Shown here: one piece after another, positions 1,464 to 54,147 of the stretch
How the letters are laid out: every line of letters starts with the position of its first letter
Position numbering within the stretch: the first letter of the stretch is position 1
DNA from: Escherichia coli
Lineage (GTDB): Bacteria > Pseudomonadota > Gammaproteobacteria > Enterobacterales > Enterobacteriaceae
Strand: one strand, 5' to 3'
Length of the DNA: 64,000 nucleotides
Assembly: GCF_016026235.1 (NCBI RefSeq)
Contig: NZ_CP065613.1
The notes under the pieces: generated by a model
Databases searched by the model: none
What the model was told of the DNA's origin: nothing
The model's input: the letters and a program-made list of their open reading frames with translations, nothing else
Program-made: the position numbers and the translations under genes

Positions 1464-2402
<939 letters not shown>

Positions 2403-3206: not shown

Positions 3207-5912
3207 ATGCTAATCAAATTATTAACTAAAGTTTTCGGTAGTCGTAACGATCGCACCCTGCGCCGGATGCGCAAAGTGGTCAACATCATCAATGCCATGG
3301 AACCGGAGATGGAAAAACTCTCCGACGAAGAACTGAAAGGGAAAACCGCAGAGTTTCGTGCACGTCTGGAAAAAGGCGAAGTGCTGGAAAATCTGATCTC
3401 GGAAGCTTTCGCCGTGGTACGTGAGGCAAGTAAGCGCGTCTTTGGTATGCGTCACTTCGACGTTCAGTTACTCGGCGGTATGGTTCTTAACGAACGCTGC
3501 ATCGCCGAAATGCGTACCGGTGAAGGTAAAACCCTGACCGCAACGCTGCCTGCTTATCTGAACGCACTAACCGGTAAAGGCGTGCATGTAGTTACCGTCA
3601 ACGACTACCTGGCGCAACGTGACGCCGAAAACAACCGTCCGCTGTTTGAATTCCTTGGTCTGACTGTCGGTATCAACCTGCCGGGCATGCCAGCACCGGC
3701 AAAGCGCGAAGCTTACGCAGCTGACATCACTTACGGTACGAACAACGAATACGGCTTTGACTACCTGCGCGACAATATGGCGTTCAGCCCTGAAGAACGT
3801 GTACAGCGTAAACTGCACTATGCGCTGGTGGACGAAGTGGACTCCATCCTGATCGATGAAGCGCGTACACCGCTGATCATTTCCGGTCCGGCAGAAGACA
3901 GCTCGGAAATGTATAAACGCGTGAATAAAATTATTCCACACCTGATCCGCCAGGAAAAAGAAGACTCCGAAACCTTCCAGGGCGAAGGCCACTTCTCGGT
4001 GGACGAAAAATCTCGCCAGGTGAACCTGACCGAACGTGGTCTGGTGCTGATTGAAGAACTGCTGGTGAAAGAGGGCATCATGGATGAAGGGGAGTCTCTG
4101 TACTCTCCGGCGAACATCATGCTGATGCACCACGTAACGGCGGCGCTGCGCGCTCATGCGCTGTTTACCCGCGACGTCGACTACATCGTTAAAGATGGTG
4201 AAGTTATCATCGTTGACGAACACACCGGTCGTACCATGCAGGGCCGTCGCTGGTCCGATGGTCTGCACCAGGCTGTGGAAGCGAAAGAAGGTGTGCAGAT
4301 CCAGAACGAAAACCAAACGCTGGCTTCGATCACCTTCCAGAACTACTTCCGTCTGTATGAAAAACTGGCGGGGATGACCGGTACTGCTGATACCGAAGCT
4401 TTCGAATTTAGCTCCATCTACAAACTGGATACCGTCGTTGTTCCGACCAACCGTCCAATGATTCGTAAAGATCTGCCGGACCTGGTCTACATGACTGAAG
4501 CGGAAAAAATTCAGGCGATCATTGAAGATATCAAAGAACGTACTGCGAAAGGCCAGCCGGTGCTGGTGGGTACTATCTCCATCGAAAAATCGGAGCTGGT
4601 GTCAAACGAACTGACCAAAGCCGGTATTAAGCACAATGTCCTGAACGCCAAATTCCACGCCAACGAAGCGGCGATTGTTGCTCAGGCAGGTTATCCGGCT
4701 GCGGTGACTATCGCGACCAACATGGCGGGTCGTGGTACAGATATTGTGCTCGGTGGTAGCTGGCAGGCAGAAGTTGCCGCGCTGGAAAATCCGACCGCAG
4801 AGCAAATCGAAAAAATTAAAGCCGACTGGCAGGTACGTCACGATGCGGTACTGGCAGCAGGTGGCCTGCATATCATCGGTACCGAGCGTCACGAATCCCG
4901 TCGTATCGATAACCAGTTGCGCGGTCGTTCTGGTCGTCAGGGGGATGCTGGTTCTTCCCGTTTCTACCTGTCGATGGAAGATGCGCTGATGCGTATTTTT
5001 GCTTCCGACCGAGTATCCGGCATGATGCGTAAACTGGGTATGAAGCCAGGCGAAGCCATTGAACACCCGTGGGTGACCAAAGCGATTGCTAACGCCCAGC
5101 GTAAAGTTGAAAGCCGTAACTTCGACATTCGTAAGCAACTGCTGGAATATGATGACGTGGCTAACGATCAGCGTCGCGCCATTTACTCCCAGCGTAACGA
5201 ACTGCTGGATGTCAGCGATGTGAGCGAAACCATCAACAGCATTCGTGAAGATGTGTTCAAAGCCACCATTGATGCCTACATTCCGCCACAGTCGCTGGAA
5301 GAAATGTGGGATATTCCGGGGCTGCAGGAACGTCTGAAGAACGATTTCGACCTCGATTTACCAATTGCTGAGTGGCTGGATAAAGAACCCGAACTGCATG
5401 AAGAGACGCTGCGTGAGCGCATTCTGGCGCAGTCCATCGAAGTGTATCAGCGTAAAGAAGAAGTGGTTGGTGCTGAGATGATGCGTCACTTCGAGAAAGG
5501 CGTCATGCTGCAAACGCTTGACTCCCTGTGGAAAGAGCACCTGGCAGCGATGGACTATCTGCGTCAGGGTATCCACCTGCGTGGCTATGCACAGAAAGAT
5601 CCGAAGCAGGAATACAAACGTGAATCGTTCTCCATGTTTGCAGCGATGCTGGAGTCGTTGAAATATGAAGTTATCAGTACGCTGAGCAAAGTTCAGGTAC
5701 GTATGCCTGAAGAGGTTGAGGAGCTGGAACAACAGCGTCGTATGGAAGCCGAGCGTTTAGCGCAAATGCAGCAGCTTAGCCATCAGGATGACGACTCTGC
5801 AGCCGCAGCTGCACTGGCGGCGCAAACCGGTGAACGCAAAGTAGGACGTAACGATCCTTGCCCGTGCGGTTCCGGTAAAAAATACAAGCAGTGCCATGGT
5901 CGCCTGCAATAA
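3207..5912 (+). CDS. secA: Preprotein translocase ATPase SecA
   Basis: 901 aa ORF with Walker motifs and C-terminal zinc-binding [14 protein letters not shown]. Confidence 0.97.
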
Positions 5913-5933
5913 AAGCTAACAGTTGAAGTAAAA

Positions 5934-5957
5934 GGCGCAGGATTCTGCGCCTTTTTT
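5934..5957 (+). terminator. Stem-loop plus T-run downstream of secA
   Basis: ggcgcaggattctgcgcc followed by tttttt. Confidence 0.5.
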
Positions 5958-7908: not shown

Positions 7909-8010
<102 letters not shown>

Positions 8011-25668: not shown

Positions 25669-25828
25669 TGATTTTTCTGGTAAAAATTATCCAGAAGATG
25701 TTGTAAATCAAGCGCATATAAAAGCGCGGCAACTAAACGTAGAACCTGTCTTATTGAGCTTTCCGGCGAGAGTTCAATGGGACAGGTTCCAGAAAACTCA
25801 ACGTTATTAGATAGATAAGGAATAACCC

Positions 25829-41210: not shown

Positions 41211-41363
41211 TCAATAAGTGTTTGATCCATTCTTTGGGACTCCTGGCTGATTAAGTATGTCGATAAGGCGTTTCCATCCGTCACGTAATTTACGGGTGAT
41301 TCGTTCAAGTAAAGATTCGGAAGGGCAGCCAGCAACAGGCCACCCTGCAATGGCATATTGCAT
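41211..41363 (-). CDS. cIII: cIII (FtsH inhibitor), last 4 codons replaced by a stop inside the IS inverted repeat
   Basis: MQYAIAGWPVAGCPSESLLERITRKLRDGWKRLIDILNQPGVPKNGSNTY-stop; lambda cIII continues GYPD. Confidence 0.8.
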   Translation of the reverse strand: MQYAIAGWPVAGCPSESLLERITRKLRDGWKRLIDILNQPGVPKNGSNTY

Positions 41364-41462
41364 GGTGTGCTCCTTATTTACGCTTTAAATTGCTCCGTGT
41401 ATTCACTCGTTGGAATGAATACACAGTGCAGTGTTTATTCTGTTGTTTATGCCAAAATAATT

Positions 41463-48599: not shown

Positions 48600-49122
48600 G
48601 CATAAATCAGAAACACCAAAAGAAGTTAGAGACTGCTGGCAAACGCCGCTTTGGCTTTTTGATGCACTGGATATTGAGTTTGGATTCTGGCTTGATTCGG
48701 CAGCGAGCGACAAAAACGCTCTGTGCGCTCACTGGCTAACTGAGGCCGACGACGCGCTAAATTCTGAGTGGATAAGCCACGGTGCAATCTGGAATAACCC
48801 ACCGTACAGCAATATCAGGCCGTGGGTGGAAAAAGCCGCTGAGCAGTGCATACAACAGCGACAGACGGTAGTGATGCTTGTGCCAGAGGATATGTCTGTC
48901 GGATGGTTCAGTAAGGCTCTGGAGAGTGTTGACGAAGTTCGCATTATCACTGATGGACGGATTAATTTTATCGAACCATCGACAGGGCTGGAGAAGAAGG
49001 GAAACAGCAAAGGCTCCATGCTGCTGATTTGGCGACCGTTCATCAGTCCTCGACGGATGTTTACTACCGTATCCAAAGCGGCATTGATGGCGATCGGGCA
49101 GGGCGTCAGGAGGGCGGCATGA
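48592..49122 (+). CDS. Phage DNA N6-adenine methyltransferase (Dam-like)
   Basis: 176 aa with NPPY motif (IWNNPPYS). Confidence 0.75.
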
Positions 49123-49295
49123 GACGACAGCGACGAAGTATCACCGACATCATCTGCGAAAACTGCAAATACCTTCCAACGAAACGCTCCAGAAATAAAC
49201 GCAAGCCAATCCCAAAAGAATCTGACGTAAAAACCTTCAACTACACGGCTCACCTGTGGGATATCCGGTGGCTAAGACATCGTGCGAGGAAATGA
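49119..49295 (+). CDS. ninE: NinE
   Basis: 58 aa [58 protein letters not shown], matches lambda NinE. Confidence 0.8.
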
Positions 49296-49338
49296 CAATG
49301 GTGCTCGACAAGCCCCGCCGTTCAGGGCGGGGAAATTG

Positions 49339-49644
49339 TTAAGGATGAGGCTGAATTTCTTCAGGTCGGTATTTTGTTGAGAGATGAGAGATGTCAACTT
49401 CTCTCTCTGCTTTTTCAAGACTCCATGCCATCTGAAGACGAATCCATGAGGCCGGAGTTCCTCCAAGAACGGCGGCGAGACGAACAGCCATTTCAGGAGA
49501 GATTGCCGCATTTCCTGAAACCAGTCGCTGAACAGTGGAAGGCGCAACATCAAGCGCTCTTGCCAGCTCTCTGATCCCAATATTCTGATCTTCCAGAATA
49601 TCCGCAATAATTTCTCCTGGATGAGGGGGGTTAAACATCGTCAT
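49339..49644 (-). CDS. higA: HigA-type antitoxin (HTH_XRE)
   Basis: 101 aa; HTH region IGIRELARALDVAPSTVQRLVSG; immediately downstream of and overlapping the toxin gene. Confidence 0.8.
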   Translation of the reverse strand: MTMFNPPHPGEIIADILEDQNIGIRELARALDVAPSTVQRLVSGNAAISPEMAVRLAAVLGGTPASWIRLQMAWSLEKAEREVDISHLSTKYRPEEIQPHP

Positions 49645-49922
49645 TAATGGTAATCCTCGTAGTTAAGAATATAAGCGTCACCGTCACGAAACTCGAAGGT
49701 GATCCTCCAGTTACCGGAGACGGAGACAGACCACGTATCGGCCCTGTCTCCTTGCAACTGGTGCAGCCTGTAACCGGCAAGGTTAATATCATCAATGATT
49801 TCGGCTTGATCTATCACCTGAAGGCGCATTCTAAGGCGTTTAACATGATTGGGATTTACGCCTGATGCACTTCCAGTTTCAAAGAAACGTTGAAGTCCTT
49901 TGTGTTTCCAGCTTTTTATCAT
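49644..49922 (-). CDS. higB: HigB-type toxin (RelE/ParE superfamily mRNA interferase)
   Basis: 92 aa MIKSWKHKGLQRFFETGSASGVNPNHVKRL...NWRITFEFRDGDAYILNYEDYH, typical HigB. Confidence 0.8.
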   Translation of the reverse strand: MIKSWKHKGLQRFFETGSASGVNPNHVKRLRMRLQVIDQAEIIDDINLAGYRLHQLQGDRADTWSVSVSGNWRITFEFRDGDAYILNYEDYH

Positions 49923-50258
49923 GTTTGTTTCCTGTTGCGTTACGCGAATCATTATAGAGTGTGTTGTGTCATTCGCAACCGTTGGTTTGACAAAAACACA
50001 TATCCGGGGCTATATTCCCTGAACGCCAGCAAATCTGGCGTCGGGATTGGCGTCCCGGATATCGAAACGGTGCATAACCGCGCTGGCGGTTTTTTTATGC
50101 GCTAAGCACAGTCACATTCGCGATTTATGGTGGGCTGTGTGGGGGAGTTGAGAGACTCGCCGGATGTTTCGACCGGTTACGCCAACCCTGCACAGTTCAC
50201 CACCCAGCGATTGGCGTCGCAGGTGGTGAGTTAAAAACCATCGAAACGCGAGGTCGTT

Positions 50259-50945
50259 ATGACTGTTCAGATTTCTGTCAAAAACCTTTCCCCTGTTACC
50301 TATAACCAGATTCCGGTAATCACAACTGAGTTGCTTGCCCGCCTTTATGGAACAGAAACAATCCGTATACAGCAGAATCACCATGAAAATAAATCTCGGT
50401 TTATTGAGGGAAAGCACTTCTTTAAAGCTGTTGGTGATGAACTCAGAAATTTGCGACTAGTTTTAAACGAGTCGCAAAATGAGGTGAAAATCTCTCCCAA
50501 AACCCGCTCGCTCATCCTCTGGACAGAACGAGGCGCAGCCCGCCACGCAAAAATGCTCGAAACCGATCAGGCGTGGGAAGTGTTCGAAAAACTGGAAGAC
50601 TGCTATTTCAGCCAGACTTCGAAAAGCGCAGGTCATCACGAGAAGAAAACCAGCGAGCTTTCTGCAAAAGATGCAAACAGTCTGGTATGGTTGTGGGATT
50701 ATGCCAACCGCTCACAGGCATTATTCCGCGAACTGTATCCGGCGCTAAGACAAATTCAGTCTAACTATTCCGGCAGATGCCACGACTACGGTCATGAGTT
50801 CTCGTATGTTATCGGAATGGCGAGAGACGTTTTAATCAATCACACACGAGATGTTGATATTAATGAGCCAGACGGACCAACGAATCTTTCTGCATGGGTA
50901 AGACTTAAGAACAAAGAATTACCTCCTTCACTACATCACTACTGA
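50259..50945 (+). CDS. ORF6N-domain antirepressor-like protein
   Basis: 228 aa; N-terminal ORF6N-like segment ([36 protein letters not shown]). Confidence 0.55.
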
Positions 50946-51013
50946 CAGATTGCCAACGCAACGACCCAGCTTCGGCTGGGTTTTTTATTGCTGAATTTTC
51001 AATATGAGAGGAC

Positions 51014-51274
51014 ATGACAATGAACGAGCTGATAAATAGCAACGCCATTAAAATGACCAGCATTGAAATCGCTGAGTTGGTGGGTAAGCGTCATGACAAT
51101 GTGAAACGTACCATCGAAACGCTGGTTAAAAGTGGAGTTATCCGGCTTCCTCAAATTGAGGTTTCCGAAAGAATCAATAACTTAGGGTTCAATGTTCAGT
51201 ACGAGCATTACGTCTTCGAAGGCGAACAAGGTAAGCGCGACAGCATTATTGTCGTTGAAGGAGGTGTTGCATGA
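51014..51274 (+). CDS. Rha-family phage regulatory protein (short)
   Basis: 86 aa with Rha-like motif TSIEIAELVGKRHDNVKRTIETL. Confidence 0.55.
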   Translation: MTMNELINSNAIKMTSIEIAELVGKRHDNVKRTIETLVKSGVIRLPQIEVSERINNLGFNVQYEHYVFEGEQGKRDSIIVVEGGVA

Positions 51275-52040
51275 ATGCCGTAATTATTGCCAACGCAGAA
51301 ATCGTGCCGATTGAGTTTAATGGCGAGCGTGTTGTTACGTATCAAATGATTGCTGATATTCACGGGGTTCCAGTAGCCACTATTCAAAATGGCTATGCGC
51401 GAAACTCTGAGTATTTCATAGACAGGGAAGATACATATTTTATTGATTTTCATGAAAATACCTTTAGAAGGGGTTTTGAAATTCCTCCTCGTGGCATGCG
51501 AGTTTTCACTGAATCAGGCTATTTGATGCTGGTTAAAACCCTGCGCGACGAGACGGCGTGGAGAGTGCAACGTGAGCTTGTTCGCAATTATTTTCGTGGC
51601 CAAAAGAAGATAAGTCAGCCTTGCCCGACTTCACAAACCCTGCTGAAGCCGCCAGAGCGTGGGCAAACGAATATGAGCAGAAAGTGAAGCTGGAGCAACA
51701 ACTCGCGATTGCCGCACCTAAAGTTGAGTTTGCCGATCGCGTTGGCGAGGCCAGCGGAATTTTGATTGGAAACTTTGCAAAGGTTGTTGGTATTGGCCCA
51801 AACAAACTGTTTGCGTGGATGCGTGATCACAAAATCCTTATTGCTTCAGGTTCCCGGCGCAATGTGCCAATGCAGGAATATATGGATCGCGGCTATTTCA
51901 CAGTGAAAGAAACAGCGGTCAACACAAATCACGGAATACAGATATCGTTCACCACAAAAATCACCGGGCGTGGTCAACAGTGGCTGACCAGAAAGCTGCT
52001 CGATAACGGAATGCTGAAAGTAACAGGGGAGGCTGCATGA
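51271..52040 (+). pseudogene. Antirepressor (N-terminal DNA-binding plus KilA-C domain) split by a frameshift near 51600
   Basis: Overlapping ORFs 51271-51687 and 51621-52040 in different frames; second part ...DFTNPAEAARAWANEYEQKVKLEQQL... is KilA-C-like. Confidence 0.6.
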
Positions 52041-52399
52041 ATGAGTACAGATTCACGCTTCCATACCCGCCGTCGCTGAACACCTACTGGCGAAGACGGG
52101 GAAGCCGATACTACATCAGCGATAAAGGCCAGAAATACCGAAAAGACGTTCAGCAAATCATCCGCCAACTCAAGTTAGATATTTTCACCAAAGCACGACT
52201 CCGCATCAAAGTCATCGCAGACGTTCCAGACTCCCGCCGCCGCGACCTCGACAACATCCTGAAAGGTTTACTCGACTCCCTTATCCACGCCGGATTTGCG
52301 GAAGACGACGAGCAATTCGATGACATTCGCGTAATTCGTGGCGTGAAAGTACCAGGCGGACGGCTTGGAATAAAAATCACCGAACTGGAGAACGCATGA
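52037..52399 (+). CDS. rusA: RusA-family Holliday junction resolvase
   Basis: 120 aa; LPYPPSLNTYWRRRG ... RRRDLDNILKGLLDSL ... GGRLGIKITELE. Confidence 0.85.
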   Translation: MNEYRFTLPYPPSLNTYWRRRGSRYYISDKGQKYRKDVQQIIRQLKLDIFTKARLRIKVIADVPDSRRRDLDNILKGLLDSLIHAGFAEDDEQFDDIRVIRGVKVPGGRLGIKITELENA

Positions 52400-52584
52400 A
52401 CGCCACAATTCAAACGATACCAGAGCTTCTTATCCAGACACGAGGCAATCAGACCGAAGTGGCGAGGATGCTTTCCTGCGCAAGAGGAACAGTGCTCAAG
52501 TACAACCGAGACAGCAAAGGCGAGCGTCACGTAATAGTTAACGGCGTCCTGATGGTCAAACAGGGCAAAAGGGGAAGACGATGA
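52396..52584 (+). CDS. ninH: NinH-like protein
   Basis: 62 aa ...RGNQTEVARMLSCARGTVLKY..., located just upstream of Q. Confidence 0.65.
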   Translation: MNATIQTIPELLIQTRGNQTEVARMLSCARGTVLKYNRDSKGERHVIVNGVLMVKQGKRGRR

Positions 52585-53099
52585 GCATAAGAGAACTAAA
52601 CCTCACCAAAGAACAGCACGAGTGGCTGAATGGCTGGCTTGAACTGTGGGGCGCATGGGTTTATTCAGGTCGTCTGGAAAAGCGTATGAGCAGCGTAATA
52701 GCGAAGTTCATGGAGAGCGTAGAGCCGGGAAGAGTTATGACAAGGCCAATGTGCAATGATGATGATGGAATGTTGATTTCTCAGGTCGTCGATTCCGTCA
52801 TGTGCATTGACAAGAAAGCCTTTGGCATCCTCCTCAGCTACTACGCTCATGGTTCATCTAAGCGAGCAATTGCATCCTACTATCACGCGACTGCAAAGCC
52901 ACGCAAGATGTGTGGACGTGGTGGCGAGGGATGGAGAAAACCTTCACTGGCAACCTGTAGAAACGAAATTGACGACATCCTGAAAGCGTCGTTATTTGTT
53001 TTGTACCAGCCAATGCAAAATGCTTTCAAAATGCGTAAACGTGTTGAGAAAGTTAAGCATTTTGCTGTTAAAGACCTTGACATGCAATTATCCATTTAG
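52581..53099 (+). CDS. Q: Late-gene antiterminator Q (non-lambda type)
   Basis: 172 aa ORF in the Q position, directly followed by a pR'-like promoter and terminator. Confidence 0.65.
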   Translation: MSIRELNLTKEQHEWLNGWLELWGAWVYSGRLEKRMSSVIAKFMESVEPGRVMTRPMCNDDDGMLISQVVDSVMCIDKKAFGILLSYYAHGSSKRAIASYYHATAKPRKMCGRGGEGWRKPSLATCRNEIDDILKASLFVLYQPMQNAFKMRKRVEKVKHFAVKDLDMQLSI

Positions 53100-53162: not shown

Positions 53163-53237
53163 GGGTCAGTCGTATAAAGGTCATTACGGAAGGCTGTTAA
53201 CCTTCTTATCGTGGTTCGAGTCCACGCTGTCCCGCCA
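53163..53237 (+). tRNA. tRNA-like sequence, anticodon GUU (Asn), imperfect acceptor and D stems; possibly degenerate
   Basis: Anticodon arm gaagg-CTGTTAA-ccttc, T arm cgtgg-TTCGAGT-ccacg, 3' CCA; one mismatch in the acceptor stem, weak D stem. Confidence 0.35.
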
Positions 53238-53242
53238 AATAT

Positions 53243-53318
53243 GCTGGTTTAGCTCCAATGGTAGAGCAGTCGCCTTGTAAGCGAATGGGTAGCGGTTCAA
53301 GTCCGTTAACCAGCACCA
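53243..53318 (+). tRNA. tRNA, anticodon UGU (Thr), 76 nt with encoded CCA
   Basis: 7-bp acceptor stem GCTGGTT/AACCAGC, D arm GCTC-CAATGGTA-GAGC, anticodon loop CTTGTAA, T arm AGCGG-TTCAAGT-CCGTT, discriminator A, CCA. Confidence 0.6.
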
Positions 53319-53434: not shown

Positions 53435-53650
53435 ATGAAATCCATGGACAAAATATCAACGGGCATTGCCTACGGCACCTCCGCAGGCAGTGCCGGCTAC
53501 TGGTTTTTACAGTGGCTTGATCAGGTCAGTCCATCACAGTGGGCTGCGATTGGTGTGCTGGGAAGTCTGCTTCTGGGGCTTCTGACTTATCTGACGAATC
53601 TGTATTTCAAAATAAGAGAAGATAAGCGTAAGGCTGCGAGAGGTGAATAA
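53435..53650 (+). CDS. S: Phage 21-type pinholin S (dual-start; antiholin from Met1, holin from Met4)
   Basis: [45 protein letters not shown]... matches S21. Confidence 0.9.
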
Positions 53651-54147
53651 TGTCGCCATCATTACGCAAGGCTGTTGCAGTTGCTATTGGTGGCGGGGCT
53701 GTTGCTATAGCATCTGTGTTAATCACTGGCCCAGGTGGTAACGATGGTCTGGAAGGTGTCAGCTACATACCATACAAAGATATCATTGGTGTATGGACTG
53801 TATGTCACGGACACACCGGAAAAGACATCATGCCTGGTAAAACGTATACCGAAGCAGAATGCAAAGCTCTCCTGAATAAAGACCTTGCCACTGTCGCCAG
53901 ACAAATTAACCCGTACATCAAAGTCGATATACCGGAAACAACGCGCGGCGCTCTTTACTCGTTCGTTTACAACGTGGGCGCTGGCAATTTCAGAACATCG
54001 ACGCTTCTTCGCAAAATAAACCAGGGCGATATCAAAGGCGCATGTGACCAGCTACGTCGCTGGACATATGCTGGCGGTAAGCAATGGAAAGGGCTGATGA
54101 CCCGTCGTGAGATTGAGCGTGAAGTCTGTTTGTGGGGGCAGCAATGA
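53650..54147 (+). CDS. R: SAR endolysin R (phage 21-type lysozyme)
   Basis: 165 aa with N-terminal signal-arrest-release segment ([18 protein letters not shown]) and lysozyme domain. Confidence 0.9.

Follow-up and report, generated by a model that had tools for sequence, protein, structure and literature searches.

A probable HigB/HigA toxin–antitoxin cassette divergent from the isrK–C4–ant antirepressor unit of an Escherichia coli lambdoid prophage

In a lambdoid prophage of E. coli, two small genes are read against the genes of the pR operon that surround them, and the locus raises the question of what these genes encode, whether they form an inserted unit and whether they have any connection with the genes next to them. 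The DNA analyzed, here called the window, is a stretch of 64,000 nucleotides (contig NZ_CP065613.1 of assembly GCF_016026235.1), and the chromosomal flank of the prophage in it is that of E. coli. Along the plus strand the phage genes run O, P, NinB, Dam and NinE, are interrupted by the two minus-strand genes, and continue on the plus strand with Ant, RusA, a NinH-like gene and Q. A cI-like repressor gene on the minus strand precedes O, and further antirepressor fragments follow Ant (PHROG matches and annotated loci). The initial annotation of this DNA had placed the pair between ninE and the antirepressor genes and antisense to the pR operon; the order is confirmed by PHROG matches and homologous annotated loci, and the pair does lie on the minus strand amid plus-strand genes. 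The genes directly concerned are the following:

49119–49295, plus strand: ninE, the last pR-operon gene before the cassette; it matches phrog_288 and is 100% identical to the NinE family protein of E. coli VL40
49922–49644, minus strand: higB, predicted toxin gene of 92 aa, from the ATG at 49922 to the stop codon TAA at 49646–49644
49644–49339, minus strand: higA, predicted antitoxin gene of 101 aa, encoding an XRE-type helix-turn-helix (HTH) protein

The ORF list of the window contains minus-strand ORFs at 49644–49952 and 49339–49644, and the coordinates assigned earlier to higB and higA agree exactly with those given here. The start of higB is set at 49922 because an AGGA Shine–Dalgarno sequence lies 8 nt upstream of this ATG and because all homology, in the Pfam and the PDB alignments, begins there. 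A longer higB reading frame from the ATG at 49952 was rejected, as this ATG is located inside a TATAAT −10 box and has no Shine–Dalgarno sequence. Alternative ORFs (for instance 49272–49607 on the minus strand and 49647–49865 on the plus strand) were set aside because they overlap two genes with strong family support. At the junction of the two genes, the sequence TAATG joins the stop codon of higB to the start codon of higA through one shared base, which is the toxin-first arrangement with a 1-nt overlap that had been reported for the pair. This reversed order, with the toxin upstream of the antitoxin in one operon and the two genes overlapping, is that of HigBA modules.

HigB matches the Pfam family HigB-like_toxin (PF05015; 3.3e-21) over model positions 1–91 of 91 and the PHROG family phrog_3066, 'toxin of TA system', at 2e-36. 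It aligns with HigB of Proteus vulgaris/Rts1 (PDB 4mct_B) at 1e-30, without gaps over residues 1–92 and with 59% identity (54/92). In this gapless alignment, His54, Asn71, Arg73, Asp90, Tyr91 and His92 of Rts1 HigB are unchanged at equal positions. [quoted passage not shown] Lys57 of Rts1 HigB is replaced by Gln in the window protein; the contact of Lys57 is made via backbone atoms, and the K57A variant indicates that the residue is not essential for toxicity (PMC5027501). The only NCBIfam match of HigB, RelE_StbE, scores 16.7 bits, which is under its cutoff of 27.9, and it was not used as support; because of this score the family assignment rests on Pfam and PDB. With the toxin model and the catalytic residues of the HigBA subfamily both found in it, HigB would by homology be a RelE-fold, ribosome-dependent mRNA endonuclease.

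HigA matches the HigA equivalog model TIGR02607 of NCBIfam with 89.1 bits (cutoff 47.7) and Pfam HTH_3 at 1.4e-9, which makes the antitoxin a HigA-family XRE-HTH protein; in the PHROG search, the pair matches toxin and antitoxin families. The closest solved antitoxin is HigA of E. coli CFT073 (PDB 2icp; 7e-28, 51% over 89 residues), which differs in coming from a chromosomal locus of a uropathogenic strain (2ICP/2ICT) and not from a prophage context like that of the window. Rts1 HigA (4mcx_A) aligns at 6e-20, and its Arg40, a sequence-specific DNA contact (PMC12266136), is kept in the window protein. The Rts1 HigB–HigA system of Proteus vulgaris (4MCT/4MCX, with ribosome complexes 4YPB/4ZSN) resembles the window pair in its toxin-first order, its 92-aa HigB, its catalytic residues, Arg40 of HigA and inverted repeats near the −35 and −10 elements of the promoter. 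It differs in being carried by a plasmid and not by a lambdoid prophage, in the sequence of HigA (41% identity), in its operator sequences and in Lys57, and the window pair is known from sequence.

The initial annotation had named the proteins HigB and HigA and had fixed in advance what would speak against these names, a failure to match RelE/ParE and HTH_XRE models; both proteins passed. We estimate at about 85% the probability that 49339–49922 is an intact type II toxin–antitoxin (TA) pair of the Rts1/Proteus subfamily that works as its homologs do. HigB would then cut A-site mRNA codons on the ribosome, a dimer of the XRE-HTH protein HigA would bind and neutralize HigB, and HigA would also act as the repressor of its operon, at inverted repeats that overlap the operon promoter. 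Toxicity, neutralization, autoregulation and the biological role of the pair are all things we infer. A module of this kind is known, and its sequence is already annotated. The exact proteins are present in NCBI on 38–39 contigs, the toxin as 'MULTISPECIES: type II toxin-antitoxin system RelE/ParE family toxin [Enterobacteriaceae]' and the antitoxin as 'HigA family addiction module antitoxin', and relatives are labelled likewise by PGAP and GenBank; the pair itself, closely related to the HigBA system that has been studied most, adds nothing new.

The limits of the inserted DNA can be read from related loci. In Stx2a_F451, which is 933W-like and has no TA pair, homology to the window runs up to 49309 and resumes at 50001, and the isrK promoter region follows within ~10 bp of ninE. 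In E. coli VL40, homology runs up to 49299 and resumes at 49987, at the −35 element of the isrK promoter, and the 710 bp between the breaks are a different toxin-first pair. The window thus holds a discrete cassette of ~690 bp (~49300–49986) made up of a hairpin, higA, higB and the higBA promoter, and the cassette-free locus of F451 upholds the view that the module was inserted. A discrete insert that is missing from F451, with sharp junctions, a promoter of its own and a terminator-like hairpin, has the properties of a moron. The control elements within the cassette are:

49313–49332, no strand assigned: GC-rich hairpin (arms CCCCGCC and GGCGGGG, loop GTTCAG) between the convergent genes ninE and higA, at the 3′ end of the cassette
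49978–49951, minus strand: predicted sigma-70 promoter of higBA (TTGCGA, 16 nt, TATAAT), matching 10 of 12 consensus positions
49934–49979, no strand assigned: operator-like inverted repeats, putative HigA sites, with arms GTTGCG/CGCAAC and GCGAAT/ATTCGC

In the higBA promoter, TTGCG of the −35 element is invariant across the aligned loci, and the −10 element TATAAT is invariant in close relatives and reads TATACT in L011, a relative with 63% identity. The arms of the inverted repeats flank or overlap the −35 element and the region downstream of the −10 element, and they are kept in relatives. In Rts1, the operators O1 and O2 overlap −35 and −10 (PMC12266136), and by analogy the repeats in the window may serve as HigA operators. 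All of this fits into the ~64 bp (49923–49986) that are left as upstream region for higBA. The whole of 49923–50258 had previously been proposed as the higBA promoter region; a predicted promoter is indeed found there, at ~49951–49978, but the remainder belongs to a separate plus-strand unit, isrK–C4–ant.

At the other end of the cassette, the hairpin at 49313–49332 folds with −19 to −21 kcal/mol and z of about −3.1 to −3.2 on both strands, has no T-run on either strand, lies inside the segment missing from F451 and is the same in L005 and L156. It is probably a transcription barrier or terminator. A plus-strand terminator-like site inside higA (49386–49405) gave z = −0.4 against shuffled sequences and was treated as chance. 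The cassette sits as a moron between ninE and the isrK–C4–ant promoter and would be transcribed against the pR operon; its own promoter together with this orientation implies that phage regulation need not control its expression in the lysogen.

The gap of 336 bp between higB and ant is occupied by plus-strand control RNAs. The features of this neighboring unit are:

49987–50016, plus strand: isrK–C4–ant promoter (TTGACA, 18 nt, TATATT), matching 11 of 12 consensus positions and located outside the TA cassette
50010–50061, plus strand: c4-a1b1 motif (RF03163), 45.3 bits, just below its gathering score of 46.7; it overlaps the IsrK-like sRNA
50023–50096, plus strand: IsrK-like sRNA (Rfam RF01394), 68.3 bits against a gathering score of 50
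50123–50207, plus strand: C4-type antisense RNA (Rfam RF01695), a regulator of ant of the P1/P7 immI type, 68.7 bits against a gathering score of 45
50127–50234, plus strand: 35-codon ORF that overlaps the C4 RNA, in a position analogous to that of Gifsy-1 orf45
50259–50945, plus strand: ant (antirepressor), matching phrog_377 'anti-repressor Ant' at 1e-79; its homologs are annotated as phage antirepressor Ant

The IsrK-like sRNA ends in an intrinsic terminator (stem and T-run at 50076–50098). All five aligned loci, TA-less F451 among them, have TTGAC and TATATT unchanged in the isrK promoter, and the higBA and isrK promoters stand back-to-back with their −35 hexamers 7–8 bp apart. The IsrK-like and C4-type RNAs both score above their gathering scores and are co-oriented with ant behind a promoter of their own, and the plus-strand unit is a homolog of isrK–orf45–anrP of Gifsy-1 and of the c4–ant genes of P1/P7 immI. 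In Gifsy-1, IsrK activates translation of the antirepressor and thereby induction (PMC4825925). Common to these loci (isrK–orf45–anrP; c4–icd–ant in P1/P7 immI) and the window are the promoter, the terminated IsrK-like sRNA, the C4-like RNA with a small ORF, and the antirepressor. Gifsy-1 differs in that the published locus comes without mention of a divergent TA cassette and has AntQ upstream (PMC4825925). What looks like intergenic DNA upstream of higB is in fact the region from which an antirepressor is controlled by IsrK/C4 RNAs.

Downstream of ant, three short and partly overlapping plus-strand ORFs (51014–52040) each match a different part of antirepressor families: one of 86 aa matches an N-terminal Rha/Ant fragment, one of 138 aa an ORF6N-like N-domain, and one of 139 aa, which starts with TTG, the C-terminal domain of Ant. 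Together they resemble a second antirepressor gene that is mosaic or has been frameshifted.

The association of higBA with this unit can be followed in relatives. The window allele is found exactly in the IMG/VR loci L005 and L156, and L005 matches 49104–52585 at 99.5%. Escherichia phage GER2 and the E. coli prophages JNEC-KY204 and STEC2018-553 carry the same module with ~91% nucleotide and 92–95% amino-acid identity, annotated as 'plasmid maintenance system killer HigB' (GER2) or 'HigA family antitoxin'. In this GER2 type, higBA is collinear with isrK, C4 and an ORF6N/Ant gene, as in the window; the type differs in a left context other than ninE, in its 3′ hairpin and in an allele that has diverged by ~9%. 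In GER2, JNEC-KY204 and the IMG/VR loci L006–L009, homology begins at 49338, one base past the higA stop codon, and runs through higBA, isrK and C4 into ant with ~80–82% identity, and the genes on the other side of the block differ from those of the window. Because the higBA–isrK–C4–ant block recurs in contexts outside the nin region, the module is associated with isrK–C4–ant and not with the nin region as such. Its assignment to the nin region in the initial annotation holds for the window, but the association that extends beyond it is with the antirepressor unit.

Among 59 IMG/VR relatives of HigB, isrK and/or C4 are divergently adjacent only in five loci with at least 92% identity and in one with 63%. 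In three of the 59, a C4 RNA is located 1.1 kb upstream on the same strand, and ~50 have neither isrK nor C4. The same-strand arrangement (L019–L021, ~1820–1907, plus strand; HigB identity 57%) is unlike the divergent one of the window. The full higBA module is present in 21 of 5,426 complete E. coli genomes, and no complete E. coli genome in the collection contains at least 80% of the 1.2-kb ninE–higBA–ant stretch.

Seen from isrK, the position is shared by other TA families. For this comparison, a sample of 108 IMG/VR loci was used in which the isrK sequence is preceded by 1 kb or more. None of three TA families is present in 93 of them (86%); eight pair an HTH protein with a Gp49-type toxin (PF05973, 9e-26), six pair one with a RelE toxin of PF06296 (1.6e-46), and one has higBA as in the window. 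Every TA pair in this position has the toxin gene first and points away from the isrK promoter. One and the same 19-nt hairpin, CGCCGCCAGAATGACGGCG, is found just 3′ of the antitoxin stop codon in members of all three families, which are unrelated to one another, at 717–831 bp from the isrK marker, or at 1138 bp where two cassettes are stacked, and it occurs in 10/15 TA-bearing loci versus 0/93 TA-less loci. It was located in L001, L003, L004, L006–L009, L091, L093, L097, L098, L123 and L129, and also in L144, L150, L153, L157, L184 and L185; the 3′ hairpin of the window allele differs from it. The pattern suggests a cassette-exchange slot with conserved flanks.

One reading that departs from an intact, working pair starts from orphan antitoxin genes. 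In 46 of the 67 E. coli genomes that match the module, and in 45 of 46 phage records, higA is kept with just ~22 nt of higB. The Stx-phage records with such an orphan higA (~90% identity) include PA2, PA8, VT2phi_272 and others; in the toxin position, PA8 (L184, 2501–3500) has two small hypothetical genes and, among the genomes, E. coli strain SCU-104 (L185, 2501–3501) has a second complete RelE/ParE and HTH pair. Many Stx phages keep only higA, which shows that the toxin is dispensable and often lost. The window locus might by the same token be a decaying remnant, or HigA alone might matter, as an anti-addiction or immunity antitoxin against HigB of plasmids or of other prophages. Both versions are extremely unlikely for the window, in which both reading frames are intact and the catalytic residues are all kept. 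Compared with seven relatives of ~90–92% nucleotide identity, dS is ~0.35 and dN 0.02–0.04, and dN/dS is 0.07–0.09 for higB and 0.11–0.12 for higA. Purifying selection on the two genes is strong (dN/dS ~0.1), even more so on higB than on higA, and the reading frames are intact in all seven relatives. Given the low dN/dS and the intact frames, the pair is not a decaying remnant.

For an intact HigB/HigA pair, the most likely main effect, and the default, is selfish addiction, a penalty on loss of the cassette DNA, with a possible benefit in excluding other phages. If that benefit were instead the chief function, the cassette would act by abortive infection: infection would deplete labile HigA, and freed HigB would shut down translation, to the benefit of the lysogen population and the resident prophage. 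A prophage moron that has a promoter of its own and an orientation for expression in the lysogen would suit this role, and the rapid turnover of three toxin-first TA families in the slot is typical of defense hotspots. Moreover, orphan HigA in Stx phages has been noted without explanation and discussed as a possible anti-defense gene (PMC12502783). However, no model of PADLOC-DB v2 matches HigB, HigA has weak generic HTH matches there (E of at least 3e-4), and in the literature searched no paper was found on defense by the HigBA subfamily in lambdoid prophages. Abortive infection as the chief function is rather doubtful, and it is compatible with addiction. The closeness of the promoters raises another idea, namely that HigA or HigB–HigA, bound at operators 8–24 bp upstream of the −35 element of isrK, modulates the isrK–C4–ant promoter and in this way induction. 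The back-to-back promoters would allow it, higBA is collinear with isrK–C4–ant across different prophage contexts, and all HigB relatives with at least 92% identity, plus the one at 63%, have isrK immediately upstream. Two other TA families with HTH antitoxins occupy the same divergent position, and IsrK controls Ant and induction in Gifsy-1 (PMC4825925). Yet the isrK promoter is the same in the 86% of sampled isrK loci that have none of the three TA families, the operator sequences that come with the cassettes are unrelated, and ~50 HigB relatives of lower identity lack isrK and C4 nearby. The pattern is explained just as well by a site between two transcription units that tolerates insertions. 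Such coupling is very unlikely.

A broader version concerns the slot as a whole. The interval from hairpin to isrK may be a dedicated slot for cassettes of RelE-superfamily toxins with HTH antitoxins in toxin-first order, wired to the antirepressor switch via the promoters or via pR-driven antisense transcription. This is quite unlikely; if true, prophage induction would affect the state of the TA pair and be affected by it in turn. In the literature, no direct report was found of the locus or of TA cassettes beside isrK/ant in lambdoid phages. What the comparisons do bring out is a recurrent slot in lambdoid prophages in which one TA cassette takes the place of another, unrelated one, in some cases with an orphan antitoxin gene as the remainder. 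This slot would offer a convenient natural system for TA turnover on phages and for prophage TA modules in relation to the control of induction. The exchange slot beside the IsrK/C4 switch is the only part of the locus that might merit follow-up.

Further along the prophage, Q (52581–53099, plus strand) is followed by tRNA-Asn, tRNA-Thr, endolysin and terminase genes. The tRNA genes, tRNA-Asn(GTT) and tRNA-Thr(TGT), lie directly downstream of Q at 53163–53318 on the plus strand, a position that in Stx phages is taken by tRNAs and stx. The ORF list of the window contains nothing of stxA size (~319 aa) at this point, and the endolysin ORF (53650–54147) comes next. Elsewhere in the window, further Rfam matches at gathering level are present at 152–241, 5888–5957 and 7913–7990, and on the minus strand at 25713–25826, 34890–34978 and 41318–41376; the families are PssrA, STnc40, naRNA4, tp2, sRNA-Xcc1 and the lambda cIII thermoregulator, and sRNA-Xcc1 also recurs in many of the phage loci compared.
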